This document shows, piece after piece, positions 9,688-56,046 of a DNA stretch of 64,000 nt. The position numbers were made by a program, and so were the translations under genes. The notes beneath the pieces are model-generated. The model did not search any database and had not been told where the DNA came from. It saw only the letters and a program-made list of their open reading frames with translations. Source of the DNA: a phage. The stretch's first letter is position 1; every line of letters starts with the position of its first letter. The DNA lies in assembly GCA_020241865.1 (NCBI GenBank), contig GCA_020241865.1_4709.1; one strand, given 5' to 3'.

Positions 9688-12600
9688 TTATCTTACGTTA
9701 TTGCTGTTCTGCTGTTCGCTGAACCAACCATACACCTTGAGATCGGTACCGTATTTCAACGCGATATACGCATTCAGCGCAGCACAGAACAAAGACGCGA
9801 ATGCCCATATCAGCGAAGGATCAACATCTTCCGTTACCATTGGGAGAGTATTATCCGGTTCCCATGATGGAGAACTGTCCATGAACGTTGCGTACCATCC
9901 CCGCCGTTGTTCTTCGGTGGTAAAGTCGCTATGGGGTTCCAATGCTTCTTTTGCCAGACGTCGATATTCGAACATATGCGTTGCTAAAGCCGATGAGTTA
10001 CCAGATTCGCCTTCATAGTTCGGATCCACCGCATAACAGAGTTCTGTGGAATCTAACAAAGCAACCGCCTGTGTGATGTTGTCGGCAGTGCCTGCACCAT
10101 AGAGCTCGATAGACCGCGAAAGCTTTTCACAGAACGCATTTAACGCGGAAGGATTGGACACCTGAAGGTCAAGGCCTAATGTCCACGGATAGTTACTGAA
10201 TACGCCCGTAAACCGCGGCATAACACCCAACAGATGTTGTCCGATTACAGCACGGTTATAAACAGCCCGGTTATAGACTTGAAACGCAGCCTCCAAAGCT
10301 TGGTTATAATGACGACGAAGTTCGTCACGCGAGTTGCGGAATCTGTTTGCCGCAAGACTTGTGGCTGCGACGCTACAAACATCGTAATTGGTGGACGAGA
10401 GCACAGTTTCGTTAAGATCGAACGATTCCTGTTTCAACGATCCGCTAACCGCTGCTGCTTCGCTGTTTGCTTTATCGACAACAGTACTCAAAGCGTTGAT
10501 GTAACGTTTAGCTCGGACTTCCAGCCATTGTGCGATACCGAGAATATCCACCGCGGCTTTAGCAAGATCGCGTGCATTCACGATTTCGTTCTTCAACGCC
10601 CCTAAACCTTTATTTTCAGGCGTTGAGGCTTGTTGACGAATCATACTGTTCAACATGGTAAGCAGATTATCCAACTCATGTCCGCTGACCTTGTTGCGCG
10701 CATCGGTAATCGGCCCTTGCAGGAATTTACGACAACCGTCATTATACCGAATCAGTTTATCCACGTCGATGGATTCGTTCGTGGTTTCCTTGAACTGATT
10801 CTTTAATTCTTCACGGTAGTCGTGTATCTCGCTTGTAAGATTATCAACGGTGATACCATTGTGACCAAGAAGAACTTTACTGAAGTTGCCCTTCTCGAAC
10901 GCCAGTGCGATGTCTTCACGAATCTTAGCCAGTTTATCCTGATCTAATTCACGACCGTTTGACAGTTCTTTCACTTCAGCACTGATTATTGCTGCAACCG
11001 TTCCAAGGTTATCGGTAACCCCTTTGAACGTGCTTGACCAAACACTTCCCGCTTCAGCGTATTTTGCGATGGTCTGGATACCGACGCTATGTAACGACGC
11101 TAAACGTTTCTTCGTACCTTCGGTAAGCAATGCATCTTTAGCTCGCGTAAGTTGACTGTTATTGGCTTCCGCTTGCTGGATGGCCGCTTTCGCATTCCCG
11201 TTACGCCAGCTCTTAACCAACCAATCGACCAAACGTTTCAGGATGTTGATGGTATATTCCATCGTACGTCGTAACGTTTCCCATGCGCTTTCAGCGGTAT
11301 AGATCCCACCAACAGTGTACCCTTCCATCTTCAGCGCTTTGGTATCGGTTTGACGTGCCAACCATTCTACCGTCGCAGAACAAACGTTTACGAACGCCTC
11401 CAGGTAGTTGTAATAGGCCTCTGTTGCGGAGGTTTCGTTGAGCTTCGAATGCAGATAAAACTGTTCGTATAGCTCGTCGTCATCACCGAAGGCGTCGTAG
11501 TTCCACAGTTCGGTATCGCAGCCGGTACCACAGAAGACATCCGCCGTTGTAAACTCCTTAAGTGCTTTCGTTGCGTCGTTGGTCAGGAATTTACCTGTCT
11601 CAAGTACGTCGTCAACATTAAGTCTCGGGAGTTCGTCAGTAATTGGGTTTTCCAGCATCAACGTATTGAAGAACACGCTGTACTTGTATCCAAGCCATTT
11701 TGGATAACTGTTTTCAGATATCGTAGACGCCGGTTTGATTTTCTTGGCTTCAGCCAACGTGTCTTCTGCAACCTGATATTGGTTTTCCCCAGCTTTGATA
11801 CGTCGTAATGCTTTTTCTTCCAACTGTTTGAGTTTGGTGTGCCGTGCTTGAGCTGGAGCCTCAACCAGTTTTTGTACCGACCGCATGGCGGAAATCGCTT
11901 CTTTCAATGTGGTGATCGGCATACGAACTTTACCGTCATCGAAACTCAGCGCGCGAGCAATACGTCGACTTACAACAGGTTCGGTATGGATGTTTCTTTC
12001 TACCCACGATTTGTTTGCGTAGGTTTGCGTGATTTGCTGCTGGATCTTTTCAAGATAGCCCCAGCTTTTGGATGCTTTGCCGTCCAAAAGCGGATTAGGT
12101 CCTTTCTTATCAAAAAGCTTTTTGATAGGATCAAAGAAACCTTCTTGCACGAGATCGATACGGGTGTAACCATCAGCTGCTTCGATTTCTTCTTGGGTTT
12201 TATCCCAGAAGTCGTCGCTCTTTGCAGCAACCGCTGTATCTTTAATGTCCAGGATGATCTGACCCACCGTTTGCGCAAACAGCAAGGCCGCACGTACCGA
12301 TTGTGCGAACATCCGCTGATATTTGATTCGAACGCATTGCATCTGGGTTAGCAGATTCAGTTGCGCGATCCCATCCAAGGTGCTATCTTGAGCAAGTCCT
12401 TCAGCCTTAGCGATAACCTGTTTTACACGTTCAGCGACATCAACGTATTGCTGGCATACATCCCGCAGAATACGTGCTGCGAAGACCCCGGTACCGATAT
12501 AGTTCAACAGGTCTTTTAATGACCATTCAGACGGACAATCGGCTGGTGCGGTAGGGAGTAAGCAACCATCACCGTCCATGAATCGCTCTAATGCACTAAT

Positions 12601-16605: not shown

Positions 16606-17916
16606 TTAGGCGATAATGGAGTCAAGAGTCGCTGCGGTTTTGAACAGATCGCTGTTCATTGTAGAAGAAAGGACTTGCTGAATTTCTTCCTGTTTAACCG
16701 CTTTACGAACCCCAGGACGAAGGATAAGCGTAACCATCTGTGAAAAGGTACGATTATTGTTCATCGCACTCAGCGTTTCATCGATTGTTTTGATGGCATC
16801 CAGCGTCATGGAACGAACATCGCTTGGGATATCACGATCTTTCAAGCGTATAATTAAATCTTGTTTGATTTTACGGAATCGTTCCATGTCGTTATCGTAA
16901 ATGCTGTATGTCGGATCTAACCAAACAGAAAGCGCGGTTACAGCGACAACAACCAACACGCCGATAGCACCAACAGAAGCTAAACCTATCGCCATCATAG
17001 AAGCTATAGTAGCATCCATGATGAAGGAGAGCCAGAACATCGTTTTGGACTTCACGGAGTCTTTGCTATAAAGCCGATACATTTTAGCAAGCCCGCTAAC
17101 GAGATACTCCCCACCGCCATGACGCGTAGCGAACTGATCAGCCATGAATTCGGAAGCAACGTCGGTATATCGTCCAGCGTTGTTTACGTTTCTTAACTGC
17201 ATCGCTCTGTTAGACACGTAAACCGTGTACCAGACACTACCGTCGTCTGAATCACTGATTTTGTCTACGTCGACGTTGGTATCCAACGTTTTGTTTAACG
17301 CTTTCGCCAGTTCGATACGTTTTACCTTATCGGTTGTCCCCAACAGTTCACGCTGTACGGTCATGATTGAGGCTTCGACACGAACCGTTTCCGACAATGT
17401 TTCAAGGAAGGTAAATGCGTGCCCGATTTCATGCAGCATTATGGCTGCTTTTTCTTCCGGAAGAAAGGGTTCTGTCGCCGTTAGCAGTTCATACGTGATG
17501 GCAGAACGAATCTTCAATTCTTCAAAAATACCGTAAACACGACCTTTTTCTAAATCGACGTAACCGACAGGTGTATCTTTAATCTTCTTAAGGAGCGTAA
17601 CACCATCAGCACCGCGCATCCATAACCGATGATAGTCTGCCAGGATTGTGTTGTTTGTCGAAATATCCGGCGGGTACACGTAGGCATTCATCCGGCCCAT
17701 TTTCACGTCGACCGAGAATTCGATGTTCAACCCCGTATAGCGTTTAACCATCTCGGTTAAACGACCGTCCTTGAAAACGTTTAAAACCTCTTTTTTATCC
17801 AGTCCCTGTTTGCTTCTGAAGAACTCGGTCATTTCCTTGAACAAGGAACCATCTTGAAACTTGATGGCCTCCATCGTTAATTCGTCATGACCATACACGC
17901 GTTGTAGTAATGACAT
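16606..17916 (-). CDS. M48-like zinc metallopeptidase with C-terminal transmembrane segment
   Basis: HExxH motif (MLHEIGHAF) followed by ExxADxF-like third-ligand motif (SEFMADQFATRHGGG); hydrophobic stretch MMAIGLASVGAIGVLVVVAVTALSVWL. Confidence 0.75.
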   Translation of the reverse strand: MSLLQRVYGHDELTMEAIKFQDGSLFKEMTEFFRSKQGLDKKEVLNVFKDGRLTEMVKRYTGLNIEFSVDVKMGRMNAYVYPPDISTNNTILADYHRLWMRGADGVTLLKKIKDTPVGYVDLEKGRVYGIFEELKIRSAITYELLTATEPFLPEEKAAIMLHEIGHAFTFLETLSETVRVEASIMTVQRELLGTTDKVKRIELAKALNKTLDTNVDVDKISDSDDGSVWYTVYVSNRAMQLRNVNNAGRYTDVASEFMADQFATRHGGGEYLVSGLAKMYRLYSKDSVKSKTMFWLSFIMDATIASMMAIGLASVGAIGVLVVVAVTALSVWLDPTYSIYDNDMERFRKIKQDLIIRLKDRDIPSDVRSMTLDAIKTIDETLSAMNNNRTFSQMVTLILRPGVRKAVKQEEIQQVLSSTMNSDLFKTAATLDSIIA

Positions 17917-17927
17917 TGTACACTCTC

Positions 17928-17945
17928 TAAATTTACGTAAATTTA
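17928..17945. promoter_or_regulatory. perfect 18-bp palindrome TAAATTTACGTAAATTTA in divergent intergenic region, 12 bp upstream of the metallopeptidase start codon
   Basis: perfect dyad symmetry; position typical of operator or translational-repressor site. Confidence 0.4.
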
Positions 17946-18137: not shown

Positions 18138-19889
18138 ATGAGCGAACAAGAACGAAAACCTAAGAAGAAACTGCTCGGTATTCAATGTCGACACATCAGC
18201 TATAACGAAGCGAACGATGGCAGCAAGAACGACCTCATGATCGCAAAAGAGATCATGTTCTTCGATGATAATACGCAAGCGACGAACCTTCGCTTCTTCG
18301 AGAATTACAAACGTCCGTTTTGGGTGACGGTAGAGAGTAAACGTAAGAACAAATATAAAAAGGAAAGCGAGAAGCTCTCGCATGTGCGTCGCTACGATGT
18401 CCGCCAAAGCGAACTGGTTGAAAAGATCAGCTCGGTACTTTATAAAAGACGTGCTGACGATAACACCCGTTTACAGCAGCTTGCACGGAGTCCATACCTC
18501 TATGGAACGGACGTTAGCGCCAGCTGTTATTTAAAAACCCAGTACAACACAAAATGGCCGGAATACGTCGATAAATTACCCGCTTCCATTGCCTGTTTCG
18601 ATATCGAAACCGACGTTGTCCACGGACACGGTAAGATCGTTTGTATGTCTATTACAATGGGATACAATGCGATACTTTGCTATACCAAGGACTTCGTTGG
18701 TCATATTCCGAATGCCATTGAGAAAACCCATGAGAAGATTCGATATTACCTGGCCGAACGTCTGAATACCAAAGAAGATCCCCACGCATTCGAAAAATAT
18801 CAGTACGATGTTCGAATCGTAGAAAGCCCGGCACAAGCGGTCATCCAATGCATGCAGAAGGTTCACGAATGGCAGCCGGATTATCTCCTTGGCTGGAATA
18901 TCGCGTTCGATATTCCGCGCATGCTCCAGGCACTGAACGAGGAAGGGTATCGTCCCGAGGATGTTTTCTCCGATCCCCGTATACCACCTAAATATCGTAT
19001 TGCTCGCTGGGTACCACCGAAGACCGACAAGGTATCTGCTTCAGGTCGTAAAACCAACCTTACCCTTGAGCAAACCTGGCCGATGTTTTATACGATGGCT
19101 ACGTATCAGGTTATGGATGCGATGTGTGGCTATAAGTTCGTTCGTTTAGGAAGACCGGATGAAGGACGCTATTCACTCGATGCGGTGTTAGAGCGAAATA
19201 AATGCCATACGAAATTAAAAGCTATTCCTGGTACAGAGGGGTTCACGGAGCTTGCCTGGCACGAAGAGATGCAAACGAACCATCAAATCGACTACGGCGT
19301 ATATAACCTTTGGGATAACCAGGGTATTGAGGCGTTGGACCAGAAAACAAAAGACTATTCGATGACCATCCCTATCCGTTTAGCGGCGTCGGATTTGAAA
19401 GATTTCAGTTCTAACCCTAAACGTATCTGCGATAAACTTTTCTTCGTTTATCTTAACCGTGGGGAAGTCATGGGATGTACCGCTGACGACATGACCCAGG
19501 AAGAAGATAAGTGGGTTATCTCACGAGCTGGACATATCGTCACATTACCATGCGATCTCATGGCTGACAACGGCATTCATCTCTTCTGGGATATGCCGAA
19601 CCTGAGAAGTTATATCCGTCTATTCGTTGCAGACCTTGACATTAGCAGTTCATACCCGAATGGGCAGATCCTGTTGAATCTATCCAGAGCGTGTGTTTTT
19701 CGCGAGCTCTCACGCATTGAGGGCGTCTCTGACTATCAATTCAGGAAGTTAGGTATCAACTTTATTACCGGAGGTAAAACGAACGCTGTAGACTTCTGTA
19801 GAATCGTTTATAAAGCACCATCGATGTTTGAACTTTTAGAACATTTCGATGCAACGCGTCCAAAAGAGGAAGCGCGGACCATCGAATGA
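18138..19889 (+). CDS. DEDDy-type 3'-5' exonuclease domain protein, likely N-terminal part of a split family-B DNA polymerase
   Basis: Exo I (FDIETD), Exo II (GWNIAFD) and Exo III (YSLDAVLE) motifs in canonical order and spacing; motif-A-like DLDISSSYP near C-terminus; ORF ends before motifs B and C. Confidence 0.7.
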   Translation: MSEQERKPKKKLLGIQCRHISYNEANDGSKNDLMIAKEIMFFDDNTQATNLRFFENYKRPFWVTVESKRKNKYKKESEKLSHVRRYDVRQSELVEKISSVLYKRRADDNTRLQQLARSPYLYGTDVSASCYLKTQYNTKWPEYVDKLPASIACFDIETDVVHGHGKIVCMSITMGYNAILCYTKDFVGHIPNAIEKTHEKIRYYLAERLNTKEDPHAFEKYQYDVRIVESPAQAVIQCMQKVHEWQPDYLLGWNIAFDIPRMLQALNEEGYRPEDVFSDPRIPPKYRIARWVPPKTDKVSASGRKTNLTLEQTWPMFYTMATYQVMDAMCGYKFVRLGRPDEGRYSLDAVLERNKCHTKLKAIPGTEGFTELAWHEEMQTNHQIDYGVYNLWDNQGIEALDQKTKDYSMTIPIRLAASDLKDFSSNPKRICDKLFFVYLNRGEVMGCTADDMTQEEDKWVISRAGHIVTLPCDLMADNGIHLFWDMPNLRSYIRLFVADLDISSSYPNGQILLNLSRACVFRELSRIEGVSDYQFRKLGINFITGGKTNAVDFCRIVYKAPSMFELLEHFDATRPKEEARTIE

Positions 19890-24859: not shown

Positions 24860-24887
24860 AAAAAAAAAAGGTGGGGCGAACCCCACC
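24860..24887 (-). terminator. rho-independent terminator (hairpin followed by U10 on minus strand)
   Basis: plus strand A10 then GGTGGGG-CGAA-CCCCACC; on minus strand stem-loop followed by T10. Confidence 0.65.
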
Positions 24888-24912: not shown

Positions 24913-25338
24913 TTAATTCAGTGATGCATATAAGGCATAACGACTGTAGATCTCAACCGCCGGTCCGTTATGCGTTAACAGACCGTCTCGGCTGTAATAC
25001 TGGAAAAATGAATAACGTTTGTCGAAGTGATAAACAAAAGCAATGTCTTTGCCGTCAAAACCTGTGATGCGTGGTCTGTTTTTATCTAGCAATGCTTTGA
25101 CTTTTAACAGTGTTGCCGCACGTGCTTTAACGTTAGGGATCAAGCCATCACAATCGATATAAACAGTGTAACCTGTTTCAGATGTTGCGACGGTCGTATT
25201 GCGATTGACGCGGAAGATTTTTGTTTCGTATGTACTATCTTCAAGAATTGGGTTTTGTTTTTCGTATTTTCGTTTACGCAGAAATTCTACAACGGTGATA
25301 TAGTTAGCGGTAATATGCCCGGTTATAGCTTGTAACAT
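24913..25338 (-). CDS. small hypothetical protein (141 aa) behind conserved promoter/leader cassette
   Basis: ORF flanked by conserved upstream cassette (25335-25444) and downstream hairpin plus T10 terminator. Confidence 0.7.
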   Translation of the reverse strand: MLQAITGHITANYITVVEFLRKRKYEKQNPILEDSTYETKIFRVNRNTTVATSETGYTVYIDCDGLIPNVKARAATLLKVKALLDKNRPRITGFDGKDIAFVYHFDKRYSFFQYYSRDGLLTHNGPAVEIYSRYALYASLN

Positions 25339-25444
25339 CTTGACATCCTTTTATATTGGATTGGTTGCAATTGTCTTAAATAGATGATAAGATATTTTGC
25401 TCTTATCACTAAGGTAATGTAGTCGCGAAATAAACTGCGTTAAC
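25335..25444 (-). promoter_or_regulatory. conserved promoter/leader/RBS cassette, copy A (upstream of 24913..25338)
   Basis: 29-nt identity (ACATCTTGACATCCTTTTATATTGGATTG) plus ~37-nt block at ~70% identity shared with 53506..53612; leader hairpin GATAAGA...TCTTATC between blocks. Confidence 0.55.
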
Positions 25445-25460
25445 ACGAAATAAAAAACAG

Positions 25461-25510
25461 CATAGAACCCTCCTCCCACATCCTTCAAGAGGACGGTGGG
25501 AAGAGGGAGA
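25461..25510 (-). terminator. GC-rich palindromic hairpin (family member)
   Basis: CATAGAACCCTCCTCCCAC...GTGGGAAGAGGGAGAG downstream of 25513..25914. Confidence 0.5.
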
Positions 25511-43882: not shown

Positions 43883-46800
43883 TTAAATTGTCGGTTTCAC
43901 GTCGCGTAATAGGGCAATATAATAGCCTAATCCTCGGAGGATCTCCCCACTCCAGAAACCAAAATACATTCCGTCTCTGCCGAGATTAGCACTATCTGGT
44001 GCAGGACTCCACCCACCATTCATTGCGTCATCAACGGTGTAGCGGTTGATGTAGTTTTCAACGATTTCATTATAAACGTTAACGGCAACAGGATAGCCTT
44101 TATCGTTGGGATGCCCATACAACATCGCTAACGACGCACCCGCTAACCATAATCCTGCCATATGACCAGTAAAGTCATTAGGGATAAAAGCAGGGGGTTT
44201 ATCCATCGGAAAATCCGTAGGAGATTGATAAGCGTTTTCCTGTTGATACGTAAACAAGAAATCGATCCAATGGCTGATGTAAGTGGTTAACTTCTCAGGG
44301 ACAGCCAAACCACGATCAAGCAGTCCGGCATAAAGCCTCACCACTGAAAAGAAAGCCCTCGGCTGATAACCAGGCCATGCTGTCTGATCGCCGAAGTGGT
44401 ACATCGTAAAATCATTAACTTTCGATCCGCTTGGCGCATCCCAACGATCCCACACGTACGCACTTGCTCCTGGCCCTAAAACCCCGAATTTCTGATAATA
44501 CCACTGCTGCGAGTCATACCAGAAATTCACAACATTCTGAATCATGAGGTCACGTCGTTCAGCCGATACGTCCATATCCAGGAAGACCCATGGATGTTGG
44601 TAGCCGGGATAAGGCTGACCACGCCAGCTGTCGAACGTCGGTGCGTTAGGGATATAGTTGTTCGAGAACGGAATAATACCCGGAGTATAAGGCAATGGAT
44701 CCAGACGTTGGTTGACAATCGTACAATCGCCAACACGCAATGTGCCCTCTGCCTCAAAGATTGCTTTTAACGTAAACAGCATGGTATATCCGTCATCCGT
44801 GGTGTAAGTTGACGGTGGATTGTTGATGGCGTAAAGCTTAAATACCCCTTCAGCGATATCGCTGTCATCAGGCAAGAACAGAATTTCAGTTGAACCGTCG
44901 CCCCACACAGGTGCGGAAGGTTTAGGGTCAGTATCAGCATGGCCAGGTTGATACCCTGAGAGCCTCCATCCGTTCGCCGAAAGCGTCAATGTATTTCTTG
45001 CTGTGGTGGCCGGTAGCATATACCACCATCGCCAACCATTTGCATCTTCTACACGAACGTTGTAGTCAATCGACGCGAAATAACTGACCTGCCTTACGAT
45101 CTGTTTTGCGGTTGGATTGAATTCAAATTGTCCGCCTGCCGCAGTAAGCTGCGCTTTTAGGAACAACCCATCCCAGGAATCTTCCACTGCTTCGCTGAAT
45201 TCTGTTGTGATTGCGATATCGTCTTTCCAGCCGACTTTATCAGCCGACATCAACACCGAACCTGTAACAGCATCACCGGTTGGTATTGAAGCTTCATCAA
45301 CCGCATCAGCGGGAATCAACGAGCCTATTTTGAAATCCCATCCTTTCGGTTCAACGCTGGAAGGTAATACCAGCTTGTACGTTTTGGCTTTCGCTTCGGT
45401 TTTGTCCAAAGAAAGCGATAATGAGATCTCAACCGGAATTGCAACGCCTGTCGTATCTTTACCGCCGCAGGTTACCCGAAGAATTGAATCACGATTGACG
45501 CGGAACGGAATGGCCTGCTGTTCAAGGTAAATTTGTGCTGAAGATGCTTGAATCACGATCCAACCATCGGTATCACGCGTGATTGTGAACGGCGCTTTCG
45601 ACGGGTATGTATACGTGTAAGCGATACCGTCGGTGTCGTAACGATCGGTTCCTTTTACTTGACGGAAGAACTTATCGTTAGCGTCAATACGGGTATATTC
45701 TTCAATCGTAAACAAAGACGCCTTGTACGCTTTCTGATAACGCTCCTGCTGCGTTAAACGGTATAAGGTGTAGGCTGCTTCACAAAACCACTGTTCAGCG
45801 TCTGACGCGTTTCCCATGTAGTCTCTGGTGACCGGCACCTGGATCGGTCGGTTATGCTGACACTCGTTCGTTTTGATAAGGTATCCGCCATATTCAACAG
45901 GAACACGCGGTGCCCATGCAACCAAGTAAGAACCGCTGACGGATTTATTTTTGAGTACGATAGTACCTACTTCATCGTCAGTACACGCTTCAAGATCGTC
46001 CCCGTCAGCACTTACGTAACGTTTTGTGCGTAACGCAACTTTCTCGATAGGGAACACCGTACCCTTTGTATCCCAGTCAATCGTCCCATCATCATTGGTT
46101 TTGAACACATCCGCGTTCAAATTCTGCCAGCCGAGTTTACCTTCATAGACCTGAACAACAAGATCCATGTATTCCCCGAACGTTGGTGCCCCATGTGTTA
46201 TTTTCCCGATACCGTTGGTGAATGTAACCGCTGTGTCATGGAAACCGCCATGTGTTGGGTAATCGTCTTTTGCAAGAGGATAATGGGCCAACACAGGTTG
46301 TTTACCATTAACAATCCAGTTAGCGATCCAGCGTGCCGGTGTATCCGGTGGTTCAAGGCCTGCATAGAACGCTTTTATATACGCATCGAACGATGCCTCT
46401 GCTAATGTGAGATAGTGCGCTTTAAGCTTGGTATCATCCGTTGTATGACTGAATATACCCGCACCCAGAATTAACAACGACTGTCCTTCTGTTGTTGCGT
46501 CACCATCCGGTTGTGCTTCTTGTCGTGTTGCTGCAATGAAATGACGGTTGTTTACCATGACCCCGCTTTCATTTAACACGTAATGATCGGTTTCTGGGTC
46601 GGTAAACGTTCCTGTGTTTCGGGTTAAGAATCTTGCATGGCCATAACCAACGAAATTAACCGGCGACGCTGTAATCATCCATTTACCGATAAGTTGAGCA
46701 ACATCATTATAACGCTCGGATGCGGTGATTTGTTTCACGTACCAGTCTTTATGGTTAAATGTCCAAAGCAGGAAGTAATAAGTTGTATCGATTTCCATCA

Positions 46801-49035: not shown

Positions 49036-49781
49036 TCGTCAATATCTCCTTCCACAAACAGAGTCAATTTGATTTCAGGATCATAGAACATGGTAATCAC
49101 ATCATCTTGCTCTACTGAACGCTGTGCTGTCCATATTAACTGTTCATCCCGAATATCAAATTTATGTCGTTCGTCACTCACCACAGCTTCCGCATCAACG
49201 TAATGGTAAACATCACCGAGAGGATTCTCAATCCAGCCGCGTACCATCAAACGTTCTTTTTGTTTACGTGTAAAGAAGCGATAGGGATCTTCGCACGTGC
49301 GCCATACGTCCCCCTTCTCGCTAACCAGTTCATCATAAACTTTAGAGAGTTCGTCAGGCACCGGAATCAAAATGTTATCTTGATAGTTCGACCAGAAACG
49401 ACGTACGTCTTGGATCAACTCATCGTCTGGGAGTTTAGTCGCTATGTTACTATAATCGATTTCAACAGTATCGATATCAAGACGGGTAAACGGAAGAGCG
49501 TCTAGGTTTCCCACCATGACCTCGATCTGATCATGATGGACACGAATCCATCCATCGAACCATCTGTACCCATCAGCTTGATATAACGTTGTGTGATAAG
49601 TGACGACGTTAATATCCTCGAACGATTCTAATAAGGCTTTAGCGGCTAAAAGCGGTGAAAAGTTCTTCGATTGTCCTGGTTTACGTATTTCTTCTTTGAT
49701 AAACAATTTACCGAGCAGTGGGTGTTCGATAACAAAACCACAGGAAAGCATGATGCTTCCTTGATAACGTGCTTCTTGCAT
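49032..49781 (-). CDS. hypothetical protein (249 aa)
   Basis: ORF with ATGA overlap to downstream gene. Confidence 0.7.
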   Translation of the reverse strand: MQEARYQGSIMLSCGFVIEHPLLGKLFIKEEIRKPGQSKNFSPLLAAKALLESFEDINVVTYHTTLYQADGYRWFDGWIRVHHDQIEVMVGNLDALPFTRLDIDTVEIDYSNIATKLPDDELIQDVRRFWSNYQDNILIPVPDELSKVYDELVSEKGDVWRTCEDPYRFFTRKQKERLMVRGWIENPLGDVYHYVDAEAVVSDERHKFDIRDEQLIWTAQRSVEQDDVITMFYDPEIKLTLFVEGDIDE

Positions 49782-51920: not shown

Positions 51921-52052
51921 GAACTCCTTCTTACTTTTTCTGATAAAGCGATGATTCAAATTTTAGAAACATCACTAACGCGAATGCGAGTAATAACGCA
52001 CGTACCCACATACCTCCTTGACAACTGTTGTACAACATAAAGACCAGAGCGA

Positions 52053-52072
52053 TGCCGCCCATATGCAGGCGG
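52053..52072 (-). terminator. small GC hairpin downstream of 52094..52303
   Basis: GCCGCC-CATATGCA-GGCGGC. Confidence 0.3.
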
Positions 52073-52093
52073 CACTTATCGAACAGTGTTGGT

Positions 52094-52303
52094 TTATACA
52101 TAAGAGATCAATCGTTGAATGATTTTTACTTTGCCTTTGCCTGGACCTTTCTTGCGGCGATTCAACAGACGGATACTGTTTCCAGTTACGGTGTCGCCAT
52201 CATAATCAGCCCGGAACTGTGATAAAAAAGCAGGTTGTATCTGATCGACACCAGGATTGCTGTGGAAAGGATTGAGACTTAAAAGAGGGTTAGCTGGAAT
52301 CAT
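52094..52303 (-). CDS. small hypothetical protein (~69 aa) with basic C-terminus
   Basis: ORF 52094..52321 (TTG); ATG 52303 with AAGGA RBS; short, low support. Confidence 0.35.
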   Translation of the reverse strand: MIPANPLLSLNPFHSNPGVDQIQPAFLSQFRADYDGDTVTGNSIRLLNRRKKGPGKGKVKIIQRLISYV

Positions 52304-52321
52304 CGTATTGTCCTTACTCAA

Positions 52322-52672
52322 TTATTTACCCAGATAGAGATATTCACCGCCCTGAACAACACCGGTTGCTGGATCAACAAGTATACGAACCCTCGCGTAG
52401 GTCTTGAAAGAGGGGTTGAAAACTTCGAAGTCTGCCACTTTCAATTTCACGCTGGGGTTGGTAGGGTTCTTAACTCCGGGAAGTTCTTTCGGGGTACCGA
52501 AATCAACACCGCATTCTTCAAGGTCTGCTGGCGTCATGCTCTCCATGGCCATGTAGATTGCTTTTGCTTTATCGTAAACTTCTGGGCTATCCAGCAATCC
52601 AGCCTGCGCCGAACCGACAACACTACCGAACAGAATAGCAACAGCAACAAACAATTTAGTTAACGTTTTCAT
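52322..52672 (-). CDS. secreted (periplasmic) small protein (116 aa precursor)
   Basis: cleavable signal peptide MKTLTKLFVAVAILFGSVVGSAQA. Confidence 0.65.
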   Translation of the reverse strand: MKTLTKLFVAVAILFGSVVGSAQAGLLDSPEVYDKAKAIYMAMESMTPADLEECGVDFGTPKELPGVKNPTNPSVKLKVADFEVFNPSFKTYARVRILVDPATGVVQGGEYLYLGK

Positions 52673-52708
52673 GATATTTTCCTCGAAAGTAAAATGTTAC
52701 AATACCTA

Positions 52709-53131
52709 TTAACGTACGGCCGCTACGCTGTTAGCGCATGCCTGAATATCATCGGTATTTACGATGATGGTTTCGTTAAACGCACGAATACGTGCACGAC
52801 GTGCTTCTTTAAGGCTGGCGATTGCGCTAGCAGCTTGATCTGTATTCGCGAGGCTAATAACCGGGATCAAACGCATGTCAGGACTGCAGATATTCAATGC
52901 TTGGTATACACGTCCATTGATTCCTACGGTATCAGACATCGGATAGTGCGCACGGCATTGAAATTGACCCATGACAACAAGCGAACGATCTGAGATACCA
53001 ATCTGATAACGACCATCTTCACTGTAGGCGTAGCAGTTATTCCCACGAGCCATCCAGTTAGCCTGTGCTTGCGTGCTAACAAAAGCCAGGGTGGTGACGA
53101 TAGCGAATACGATATTTTTGAACAGTTTCAT
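52709..53131 (-). CDS. secreted Cys-containing small protein (140 aa precursor)
   Basis: signal peptide MKLFKNIVFAIVTTLAFVSTQAQA; 4 Cys in mature part. Confidence 0.65.
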   Translation of the reverse strand: MKLFKNIVFAIVTTLAFVSTQAQANWMARGNNCYAYSEDGRYQIGISDRSLVVMGQFQCRAHYPMSDTVGINGRVYQALNICSPDMRLIPVISLANTDQAASAIASLKEARRARIRAFNETIIVNTDDIQACANSVAAVR

Positions 53132-53139
53132 GATAAAGA

Positions 53140-53188
53140 TCCTTATTGAAATAAAATCGGTATAAAGGCCCCCCCATTTAGGGGGACC
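53140..53188 (-). terminator. putative intrinsic terminator downstream of 53192..53509
   Basis: C7...G5 hairpin followed on minus strand by U-rich tract. Confidence 0.4.
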
Positions 53189-53191
53189 TGA

Positions 53192-53509
53192 TTAGTTTGC
53201 ACGTAAGAAATGACCTAGAACCGTTACAATTGGAAACAGTCCTGTAACCGTATTATCACCCGAAAACATCATCTTTGAGTCGTTAACGGTGATGAAACGG
53301 ATGTCGGTTGCGGATCCGTCGATAGCGACAAAACGCATTGAGTTCGGTGGAAGATCCTCAACAACTTCCACGAGGTGTTCACGATTTTCAAAGGCTTCTT
53401 TAACACGACGCATGAAACGAATCAATGTTCCTTCAGCGTCGGCTTCCAAATGACCTAAGATATCGCGATTATTGCGAATAGCGAATACAGACATTTTAAA
53501 CATACACAT
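53192..53509 (-). CDS. small hypothetical protein (105 aa) behind second copy of conserved promoter/leader cassette
   Basis: ATG context identical over 29 nt to that of 24913..25338. Confidence 0.65.
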   Translation of the reverse strand: MCMFKMSVFAIRNNRDILGHLEADAEGTLIRFMRRVKEAFENREHLVEVVEDLPPNSMRFVAIDGSATDIRFITVNDSKMMFSGDNTVTGLFPIVTVLGHFLRAN

Positions 53510-53612
53510 CTTGACATCCTTTTATATTGGATTGATTGCTAATAGTTCAAGGTGAAGCTGATTACTGCATTGCTTCACCTAGGTAATATAGCCGTGAAAA
53601 TTAATGCATTAA
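53506..53612 (-). promoter_or_regulatory. conserved promoter/leader/RBS cassette, copy B (upstream of 53192..53509)
   Basis: same blocks as copy A; contains 12-bp palindrome TTAATGCATTAA, TATATT -10-like hexamer, leader hairpin AGGTGAAG...CTTCACCT. Confidence 0.55.
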
Positions 53613-53617
53613 TTTAT

Positions 53618-54571
53618 TCACGACTTCGCCATGTAGGGTTGAATCGCATGGAAGCGTTTAACCACAACTTCAGGAAAAAGTTTGATGATTTCATCAGGCG
53701 GTGCTGCACCTTCTGTCCAACGATAGCGTTCAACCTTCTCGATGCGTGGACTCCCTCCGACGTCAGCGATACGAAAGATACAGGCGATGCCTAAATCAAA
53801 ACACACGCTGTAAATATCTTCCGTGCCTCCTTTATCAGCAAGTATTTTCGCAAAATGCTCGTTATCAGGAAGAATGGCTAAATTACGTATACGCCAAACA
53901 TTATTACCCATTTCTTCAAGGATTGGGTATGTTAAAGTGTGTCCGTGTCGTGTTAACCATCGATGATTTTCGAGGTAGAAGTCCTTATCCCCTGGCCGGT
54001 AACCCATAATCACTCCCGTGTAGAAGAGATTGGGCATATCGAGCAGTTCTTGAATCGTTGGGCCGGTATACTCCCAGAGACAGATTTGTTTGCGGTCTAT
54101 ATCGTAATCTGTGACGTTACTCACCTCCCAACTTATCGTAAGTTCGTCGATAACATGCCAACCTAAAGTGTGTTCGCAACAAAATAGATTAACAATGGCT
54201 GATATCTCATACTTGTCAAATACCCCCAAATTACACGGTGGTTGCATCGTACGTAACGGCTCCCATAACGCACTGTAATCATAGAGCAAGTGCCGACACA
54301 AACTTTTTGTTAGTGGTGTCTGTTCAGTAAACAGTGGAAGAATCACCTTATCCAATAACAGACGTAACGGATGGTCGTCTGGTGGTAGAGGAGCAACTAG
54401 ACGACCTCCTTCTTTAGGGTAATCAAGGCCAAACCCGTAACGCTCCGAAATGAGTGCAATCAACACTTTTGCTACGCGATTACGTAGCATGCGATGGATA
54501 TCATCACTGTAACTGAATTTCGGTTTATTTCCGCAAACGAAGGTGAAGTATCTAGGTGATAGCTTAACCAT
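53618..54571 (-). CDS. hypothetical protein (~318 aa)
   Basis: ORF 53618..54643; internal ATG 54571 with AAGGA RBS removes overlap with upstream gene. Confidence 0.65.
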   Translation of the reverse strand: MVKLSPRYFTFVCGNKPKFSYSDDIHRMLRNRVAKVLIALISERYGFGLDYPKEGGRLVAPLPPDDHPLRLLLDKVILPLFTEQTPLTKSLCRHLLYDYSALWEPLRTMQPPCNLGVFDKYEISAIVNLFCCEHTLGWHVIDELTISWEVSNVTDYDIDRKQICLWEYTGPTIQELLDMPNLFYTGVIMGYRPGDKDFYLENHRWLTRHGHTLTYPILEEMGNNVWRIRNLAILPDNEHFAKILADKGGTEDIYSVCFDLGIACIFRIADVGGSPRIEKVERYRWTEGAAPPDEIIKLFPEVVVKRFHAIQPYMAKS

Positions 54572-54581
54572 AATCTTTTCC

Positions 54582-55028
54582 TTAATCCAAATAGTACGTG
54601 ATGGATAGGTCTTTTCCATCGAATACAATATCCGTGCAGTCATGGATGGTCGGTAATACCATTTTTGCTGCTATTGGGACGTATGCCTGCAGTTCCATGA
54701 AGTTGTTCATACGGAACGCACGACGTACCATCAACGGCGTTAAAGTAAACGTTACGCTAACGTTACCGCTTGGGAGCAGGTGCATTATCGCATGTCCGTG
54801 ATCGCACCAGCAATGGTTTTCGATCCATCCGGTGTAAATCAGAATGTCTTTATCTTCGTCGTAATAAGCAATGCCAGTCTGCTTTAAACGGCTGGTAAAT
54901 CGAGAGGCCTGCTCATAGCCCGCACGCAACATTCGAGCAACCAGGCGAGTGTTGTTAGCGATTCGATTCTGTTCGTTGGTTTTTGTGGTTTTGAAAAGTT
55001 CGATACGTTCTGCTTTTGTAATTTGCAT
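54582..55028 (-). CDS. hypothetical protein (148 aa), His/Cys cluster HCWCDHGH
   Basis: ORF; possible metal-binding cluster. Confidence 0.6.
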   Translation of the reverse strand: MQITKAERIELFKTTKTNEQNRIANNTRLVARMLRAGYEQASRFTSRLKQTGIAYYDEDKDILIYTGWIENHCWCDHGHAIMHLLPSGNVSVTFTLTPLMVRRAFRMNNFMELQAYVPIAAKMVLPTIHDCTDIVFDGKDLSITYYLD

Positions 55029-55033
55029 GATTA

Positions 55034-55399
55034 CTAACCTAATGAATTGCGTTTAAATAATTGGATGTATGGGGTACCAAATAAAGGACTGTATGAATGT
55101 ATTCGGTTCTCCTCTGATTCGTAATACTCGATAGGCCACGATATTGGTTTAGGTAAACGATCTAACGCTTGCAACACGGCGAGTTTAACGCTATTACTTT
55201 CGATCGGATACGGAAGTACCGTTGACGAACAGAACACACGTGTTCGATGTAAATAAATGAGATGCTGCTGTAGCTTAGACAAACGCCTACGCTTGATTAA
55301 GAAACCAGTTACGCGGCAATCGGAGTGATCGTAGTGATAACGTGCGCTATCGAAATAAACCTGTTCTCCTCTAACAATGAGATACTTTATCGCTTGCAT
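55034..55399 (-). CDS. hypothetical protein (121 aa)
   Basis: ORF. Confidence 0.55.
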   Translation of the reverse strand: MQAIKYLIVRGEQVYFDSARYHYDHSDCRVTGFLIKRRRLSKLQQHLIYLHRTRVFCSSTVLPYPIESNSVKLAVLQALDRLPKPISWPIEYYESEENRIHSYSPLFGTPYIQLFKRNSLG

Positions 55400-55446
55400 G
55401 AAAGAGTAACGGCGTAATTATCCATTAGCCAACATGACACGAATCA

Positions 55447-56046
55447 TTACTTATGTTCCAGTGTTGGTCCAAACAACCAGAATGTCAGGCGCTGATAGAC
55501 CTGTTCGCTGACCGCGGCTTCTGTTTGCTCTTCTAGTGATTTCCCTTTTTTATGCTGTATTTCTGGCGGGATGTCGCCCGTGTAAACATACCCTGTTGAG
55601 AAGTCCCACGCCAGCCGTTTACCGAATGTGGGTAAGAACACCTCTTCGAATCGGAACGCTTTCGAATTCCAATGAAGCAGCTGATCGGATTCAACACGTA
55701 ATGCTTTATTACGTTTGCTTGGCATGTTTCCGAAGTACTGAACGATGGCTGACTTCATAACCCGATCAGCGAAGTCTTTGGCTTCGGTCTCATCGAGGGG
55801 AGGCAGGCGATGCGATAGATTCAGCTTGCGTTGTTCAACATCAATCTTACGCATCGCTTTAATCAAATCACTAGGGACGATTTTACCCTTATGTCCTTCC
55901 TGTCGGTGTATGAAACACCCCTGGAATAACACGCAAAGTTCTTGAGGTGCGGTACTTTCCATTCGTCCGTAAGCAACGATCACCGAACGGCGACGGTCGA
56001 TAACTTCGCGGATAAACCGCGGCTCAGTAATACTCACCACTGTCAT
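55447..56046 (-). CDS. hypothetical protein (199 aa)
   Basis: ATG with GAGGG RBS. Confidence 0.65.
   Translation of the reverse strand: MTVVSITEPRFIREVIDRRRSVIVAYGRMESTAPQELCVLFQGCFIHRQEGHKGKIVPSDLIKAMRKIDVEQRKLNLSHRLPPLDETEAKDFADRVMKSAIVQYFGNMPSKRNKALRVESDQLLHWNSKAFRFEEVFLPTFGKRLAWDFSTGYVYTGDIPPEIQHKKGKSLEEQTEAAVSEQVYQRLTFWLFGPTLEHK

Follow-up and report, generated by a model that had tools for sequence, protein, structure and literature searches.

We found that positions 53583-53612, read on the minus strand of the window (the whole 64,000-nt stretch of phage DNA analyzed here), very probably constitute a Chimalliviridae-type early promoter of a monocistronic unit, in which the overlapping palindrome has no separate function. 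The promoter identity is well supported by sequence comparison, and the element adds an ordinary member to a promoter class that is already known. The consensus of this class in the closest described phage, Escherichia phage vB_EcoM_Goslar, had apparently not been written down previously: we found no Goslar early-promoter consensus in the literature searched, including the virion-structure preprint and reviews, and these do not mention gp105, gp106 and gp75 either. Goslar, whose host is E. coli, belongs to the Chimalliviridae and is a nucleus-forming jumbo phage of 237 kb; positions 52000-56000 of the window are 93.8% identical to it over their full length.

The genes around the locus are directed along the minus strand. 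The conserved cassette studied here (cassette B) is the 108-nt gap that separates ORF 53618-54643(-) from ORF 53192-53509(-), and it is located directly upstream of the latter, as the earlier note had placed it. The stop codon of the upstream ORF (TGA, 53618-53620) is 2 nt away from the palindrome in its full 18-bp extent, and no Pfam or PHROG family was matched by this ORF. A complete-length Goslar-like genome was found inside a Shigella flexneri assembly (GCA_031658775.1, contig ABMPEN010000001.1; 247,417 bp). There, the TGA stop of the upstream gene has become CGA and the ORF ends with a TAA within the palindrome.

The perfect 12-bp palindrome that had drawn attention to this cassette (TTAATGCATTAA) is present once in the window, but it is located at 53601-53612 and not at 53584-53595; the TATATTAC core occupies 53583-53590(-). 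The palindrome is also longer than first noted, since the 12-mer extends to a perfect 18-mer. With the +1 set at the last G of GTG (53576), the 12-mer spans approximately -36 to -25 and the dyad is centered near -30.5. The distance of 16 nt reported between the palindrome and the TATATT hexamer (53590-53585, minus strand) is correct when counted from the palindrome center, but it is 10 nt from the palindrome edge. The degenerate version described in the other copy of the cassette (TTAACGCAGTTTA, cassette A) was found at 25431-25443 on the minus strand. Perfect palindromes of at least 12 bp are about as frequent in the window as in first-order Markov simulations (20 observed and 18.5 simulated), and the 12-mer as first described is therefore unremarkable. 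The extended form is mildly unusual: three perfect palindromes of at least 18 bp were observed against 0.33 expected in the same type of simulations. Other long perfect palindromes are TAAATTTACGTAAATTTA (17928-17945), located between the divergent ORFs 16606-17916(-) and 18138-19889(+), and TATCAAAAAGCTTTTTGATA (12108-12127), within a large ORF.

The distal block of cassette B reads TTAATGCA-N5-TTTCACGGC-TATATTAC-CTAG-GTGA on the transcribed minus strand. Aligned with each other, cassettes A and B are composed of four parts: a promoter block, a hairpin, a short spacer and a 30-nt block reaching the ATG (table 1). The promoter block common to the two copies is TTAAyGCA-N5-TTTCrCGrC-TAyATTAC-CTnn-GTGA. 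The cassette is real and non-random, and its proximal 19-mer AATCCAATATAAAAGGATG has exactly two occurrences, whereas 0.04 are expected even with three mismatches allowed. The -30 box was defined with a position matrix built from 13 Goslar sites. The transcription start is predicted from the resemblance to the 201phi2-1 motif, which ends in GTG.

Table 1. Features of cassettes A and B and of their surroundings (positions are those of the window).
Feature	Position	Strand	Remarks
Upstream ORF	53618..54643	-	341 aa from the first ATG; homolog of Goslar_00106
18-bp perfect palindrome AAATTAATGCATTAATTT	53598..53615		Contains the 12-bp core TTAATGCATTAA at 53601-53612
-30 box TTAATGCA	53605..53612	-	Class consensus tAAT.CA; invariant A-34 and A-29; left half of the palindrome
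-20 box TTTTCACGGC	53591..53600	-	Class consensus TTTCAcG.C; TTTTCAC invariant in 8 orthologs
-10-like core TATATTAC	53583..53590	-	Identical to the phiKZ early-promoter core
GTGA initiation block	53575..53578	-	Conserved; predicted start G 53576 (+/-2 nt)
5' stem-loop B, GGTGAAGC-13 nt-GCTTCACC	53551..53579	-	-12.3 kcal/mol, z = -3.0
30-nt leader/translation-initiation block GCAATCAATCCAATATAAAAGGATGTCAAG	53510..53539	-	Shine-Dalgarno AGGA at 53517-53520
105-aa ORFan	53192..53509	-	Homolog of Goslar_00105; found only in Goslar-like phages
GC hairpin GGTCCCCCTAAATGGGGGGGCC, then UUUAU...UUUUAUUU	53167..53188	-	-19.5 kcal/mol; likely terminator; not called by a simple terminator scan
Cassette A promoter: TTAACGCA (-30 box), TTTCGCGAC, TACATTAC (25414-25421), GTGA	25405..25443	-	43.9 bits; predicted +1 at 25407
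5' stem-loop A, GTGATAAGA-8 nt-TCTTATCAT	25384..25409	-	z about -3.5
Cassette A leader block (25339-25368) and 141-aa ORFan	24913..25368	-	Homolog of Goslar_00075
Cassette A intrinsic terminator GGTGGGGTTCGCCCCACC + T10	24870-24887	-	Directly after the 141-aa ORFan

The promoter block is a recurrent motif with a marked bias of strand and position. The complete genome of Goslar contains 13 intergenic or gene-start sites matching TA[TC]ATTAC with the flanks TTTCAcG.C and CTnnGTGA, plus a weaker one, and all of these sites (about 14) are on the minus strand, which is the coding strand. Their consensus is tAAT.CAaaa.aTTTCAcG.CTAtATTACcTa.gTGA. The matrix yielded scores of 29 to 50 bits at the Goslar sites on which it was trained, and shuffled genomes presented 0.6 matches of at least 10 bits each. 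Exactly two matrix sites were detected in the window, corresponding to cassettes A and B (respectively, 43.9 and 47.2 bits), and the next best match reached 8.8 bits. One of the Goslar sites lies 66 nt upstream of gp189, the chimallin ChmA, which is described as early-expressed in reviews. The weaker site precedes gp165, whose only annotation is that of a putative RNA-polymerase beta subunit.

We further compared this consensus to the early promoters of related phages. Each jumbo phage encoding RNA polymerases presents an AT-rich motif near -10 upstream of its early operons, and this motif is taken as the promoter of the virion-packaged RNA polymerase, or vRNAP (PMC7598289). The mapped early promoters of 201phi2-1 are conserved at -10, -20 and -30 (PMC11512511), with the consensus TTAWTAVAA_HYWTTTRARR_BTATATTACDWHDGTG, and the consensus of phiKZ is TATATTAC (PMC7058600). 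The Goslar consensus agrees with the 201phi2-1 string in all its blocks and in all the spacings between them, and the -30 box TTAATGCA is equivalent to the TTAWTAVA of that string (PMC7058600). When applied to positions 1-50 kb of phiKZ, the Goslar matrix returned seven plus-strand matches (2.0 in shuffles) and recovered TATATTAC promoters. The top match (28.5 bits) is located upstream of PHIKZ054, the nuclear shell protein, for which published phiKZ data report a primary start site with the early motif. The leader predicted for the shell-protein gene has the same length of 66 nt in phiKZ (PHIKZ054; 45547-45648) and Goslar (chmA; 172898-172978) if the +1 is set 14 nt past the initial T of TATATTAC.

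Cassettes A and B present the features of the Chimalliviridae early (vRNAP-type) promoter: the -10-like core (TATATTAC in B and TACATTAC in A), the -20 and -30 blocks and the start GTG at fixed spacing, many co-oriented intergenic copies including the one of the hallmark early gene chmA, and a matrix that cross-recognizes experimentally supported phiKZ early promoters. We assigned the segment to this class because of the consensus match and the recovery of the phiKZ promoters; its early timing and exact start site are inferred, and its polymerase is identified by analogy with those of phiKZ and 201phi2-1. The suggestion that this region holds a promoter was sound in that the gene appears to be of the early type, TATATT lies in the -10-like core and the palindrome covers the element near -30. 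The geometry of a -35 region that came with this suggestion was not recovered: the promoter scan revealed no sigma-70 arrangement of -35 and -10 hexamers.

Several observations were made at other sites of the class. The annotated CDS of Goslar_00047 (49584-49772) overlaps a full promoter site with its core at 49725-49732. The true start appears to be a later ATG, which has a Shine-Dalgarno sequence and a predicted leader of 57 nt; this annotation is therefore probably too long. A GC-rich hairpin followed by the tail GGGTTCTATGCYGT is found immediately upstream of several promoters (~25462-25505(-) in the window; 43259, 49725 and 86698 in Goslar), a recurrence which suggests conserved terminator-promoter modules. 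In the contig IMGVR_UViG_3300011560_000001, an insertion of ~55 nt separates the promoter from its original hairpin both in copy A and at another promoter. This insertion contains an inverted repeat with 11-bp arms (GCGTTTTGTTAaTAACAAAACGC) and repeats the CCTTAGTGA / CCTTCATGA start region. Promoter regions seem to be rearrangement hot spots. Finally, two independent short-read Logan contigs from a more divergent relative both stop exactly at TTTCACGGC, probably because the repeated promoter interrupted the assembly. In these contigs, the hairpin is lengthened to 9 bp and the leader block has partly diverged.

We then analyzed the evolution of the palindrome. Orthologous sequences were obtained from Goslar, IMG/VR contigs, metagenome contigs retrieved with a pattern located downstream of the palindrome, and protein-anchored contigs. 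Across the 11 orthologous loci with sequence at this position, the 12-mer presents five alleles: TTAATGCATTAA (3 loci), TTAATACATTAA (4 loci), TCAACGCATTAA (2 loci), TTAATGCAATAA (1 locus) and CTAATGCAATAA (1 locus). The symmetry is not conserved: the palindrome is perfect in 3/11 loci, and lack of conservation in related phages is what the earlier note had named as evidence against its own proposal. No compensatory symmetric change was detected among the 11 loci. Over eight aligned genomes, 4/12 columns of the palindrome are variable, a fraction similar to that of third codon positions (0.35-0.38). The variable columns amount to 0/7 for TTTTCAC, 0/8 for the 3' arm of the leader hairpin and 2/29 for the leader block, and the invariance from -17 to +5 is partly a matter of ascertainment, as five of the metagenomic orthologs were retrieved with a pattern spanning these positions; the core of the protein-anchored loci is nevertheless the same but for one or two changes.

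It had been proposed that the palindrome is an operator or activator site, in which case a dimeric protein of the phage or of the host would switch this one early promoter off or on, possibly with autoregulation by the 105-aa product. The perfect 18-bp dyad is centered around -30.5 and overlaps the promoter, palindromes of this length are over-represented in the window (3 vs. 0.33), and the outer half-sites TTAAT..ATTAA are kept in Goslar. It would also be incorrect to call a weak dyad absent, since five of the six symmetric pairs are kept in most orthologs. However, the changes among alleles strike both halves and the center of the palindrome and are never compensated, its variability is close to the synonymous-site rate, and the positions that do not vary belong to the asymmetric -30 box. 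Our searches, which included TTAATNNATTAA and related patterns, returned no second copy of the site from either the window or Goslar, and shorter palindrome-like patterns occur there at their expected counts. No comparable inverted repeat (arms of at least 5+5 bp, gap of at most 2 nt, within -46 to -15) was found in any of the other 13 promoters of the class. The flanking proteins matched no DNA-binding family, the 105-aa product included, and the AlphaFold model of the latter is uninformative (pLDDT of 44). Early phage DNA is enclosed in the EPI vesicle, which would limit the access of cytoplasmic proteins. With five alleles, no compensation, variability near the synonymous rate and no second copy, the operator is not supported and we consider it quite improbable; only the left half of the dyad (TTAATGCA) coincides with a conserved element, the -30 box. 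The right half is a variable A/T-rich spacer, which is A-rich in most other promoters of the class. The palindrome exists because the TTAA of this spacer, found in this strain and a few relatives, happens to be the reverse complement of the first bases of the -30 box. In view of this lack of conservation, of a second copy and of a counterpart at other promoters of the class, the symmetry is best read as incidental. Regarding autoregulation, the 105-aa product was rejected as a candidate: it has no Pfam match and only a weak PHROG match of unknown function, and its homologs are restricted to Goslar-like phages.

The palindrome might also form the tip of a longer RNA hairpin (53590-53625, AGUCGUGAA...UUCACGGCU) that would terminate, pause or process transcripts reading through from the upstream gene and so insulate the 105-aa unit. 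This 36-nt fold is stable in the window (-11.4 kcal/mol, z = -4.6), less so in Goslar (-7.1, z = -2.6), and its CGUGA/UCACG pairs are kept in most orthologs; moreover, a clear terminator just upstream of the cassette A promoter indicates that the terminator-promoter arrangement exists here. But an intrinsic terminator has a G+C-rich stem and a U-tract, whereas the upper stem of this hairpin is A/U-only with no U-tract following it, and the terminator scan did not call it. The fold is lost in UViG_3300011560 (z = 0.09), its outer stem is broken by the TGA to CGA change of the Shigella-associated genome, and the -20 box, by pairing with the stop-codon context, accounts for part of the stem. Terminator function was rejected for this hairpin, as it is unconserved and its fold is good in this strain alone, and the longer-hairpin reading as a whole is highly improbable. 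An extremely improbable reading is that of a host sigma-70 promoter used by the E. coli RNA polymerase, with TATATT as its -10 hexamer and a regulator site in the -35 region. TATATT matches TATAAT at 5/6 positions, but no acceptable -35 hexamer lies at the spacing of 16-18 nt that defines such promoters (the best matches 3/6 positions), and the scan calls nothing on the minus strand at the cassette. In addition, the extended conservation (TTTCACGGC, ...TAC and GTGA) is foreign to sigma-70 and common to the phiKZ-type early promoters, and Chimallivirus transcription is independent of the host RNAP.

The leaders of the two cassettes share their organization. The hairpins of A and B are unrelated in sequence and occupy the same place. 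Among orthologs, the stem-loop of cassette B has invariant arms and a variable loop; in cassette A of UViG_3300045988, the loop has been replaced and the stem kept. Stable hairpins (z <= -2) starting at GTGA were observed at 8/14 Goslar sites relative to ~8% of 300 control GTGA sites (p = 4e-6). Some stem bases form G.U pairs (copy A and Goslar 49725), which favors a structure in RNA rather than in DNA. The 30-nt block, which lies ahead of two unrelated ORFans, has the common form GCAAyCAATCCAATATAAAAGGATGTCAAG, with a one-base difference between B (53510-53539) and A (25339-25368); no further copy was found in either the window or Goslar. An Rfam search on the leaders returned at best a match of 28.3 bits to an unrelated family (threshold of 50). 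The stem-loop and the 30-nt block could together form a cis-acting RNA module recognized by a phage or host factor, although we regard this as unlikely. Such a module might act on translation as an operator, determine stability, attenuate transcription or direct the export of early mRNAs from the EPI vesicle. The route by which early mRNAs exit the EPI vesicle is described as an open question in reviews, and 201phi2-1 produces sRNAs derived from 5'UTRs by premature termination (PMC11512511). By analogy with the latter, attenuation would be an alternative role for the leader hairpin, and mRNA export from the EPI vesicle would be an equal candidate.

Both genes are followed by a strong terminator hairpin, and we therefore consider them as self-contained monocistronic early units within long runs of same-strand genes. 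Duplication of the cassette through duplication of its gene was rejected as an explanation: the 105-aa and 141-aa products show no similarity.

The promoter class to which we assign cassette B drives the early genes of phiKZ and is attributed to the injected, virion-packaged multisubunit vRNAP. Accordingly worded for this locus, the proposal is that the vRNAP would read a tripartite promoter and an initiation block, namely TTAATGCA, TTTCACGGC, TATATTAC and GTGA, with the +1 near 53576. The transcript would begin with the 5'-terminal stem-loop of a ~67-nt leader and continue through an A/U-rich Shine-Dalgarno block, the 105-aa clade-specific ORFan and the GC-rich terminator hairpin. The most likely role of the stem-loop would be the protection of the 5' end of the mRNA, or else another function at the RNA level. 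The palindrome is of little import, as a strain-specific accident atop a standard promoter box. As a by-product, this analysis provides an explicit early-promoter consensus for Goslar-like coliphages, with ~14 sites. Goslar serves as the model of nucleus-forming phages in E. coli, and this consensus supplies testable start sites, early transcription units (including that of chmA) and parts for engineering. The hairpin at +1 and the shared leader block constitute modest leads on the stability, translation or export of early transcripts.

These elements can be compared to several known systems. Like classical dyad operators covering the -35 region, this strain presents a perfect dyad ~30 bp upstream of the start; here, however, the symmetry is unconserved, the site is single, and neither a cognate protein nor compensatory evolution was found. 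The vRNAP of coliphage N4 is a single-subunit enzyme that recognizes a DNA hairpin upstream of the +1. Both systems involve an injected virion polymerase for early transcription and a promoter-associated hairpin, but the polymerase is multisubunit here, the palindrome is unconserved and the conserved hairpin is downstream of the +1. A stable hairpin located 0-2 nt from the 5' end of an mRNA protects it against 5'-end-dependent decay by RNase E. The leader hairpins resemble these ompA-type stabilizers of E. coli in lying within 0-2 nt of the 5' end, which is a predicted one here, and in having conserved arms with loops free to vary. Relative to the early promoters of phiKZ and 201phi2-1, the present ones differ by their host and genus (E. 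coli and Goslarvirus), by their number (~14 sites in Goslar vs. 28-32 reported for phiKZ) and by a -20 box that contains C/G (TTTCACGGC). They nevertheless share a core identical to that of phiKZ (TATATTAC), a GTG four nt past the core, and the same spacing of the -20 box (TTTRARR vs. TTTCACG) and of the -30 box (TTAWTAVA vs. TTAATNCA). As in those phages, the sites are multiple, co-oriented and intergenic, and one of them precedes the shell-protein gene in both Goslar and phiKZ.
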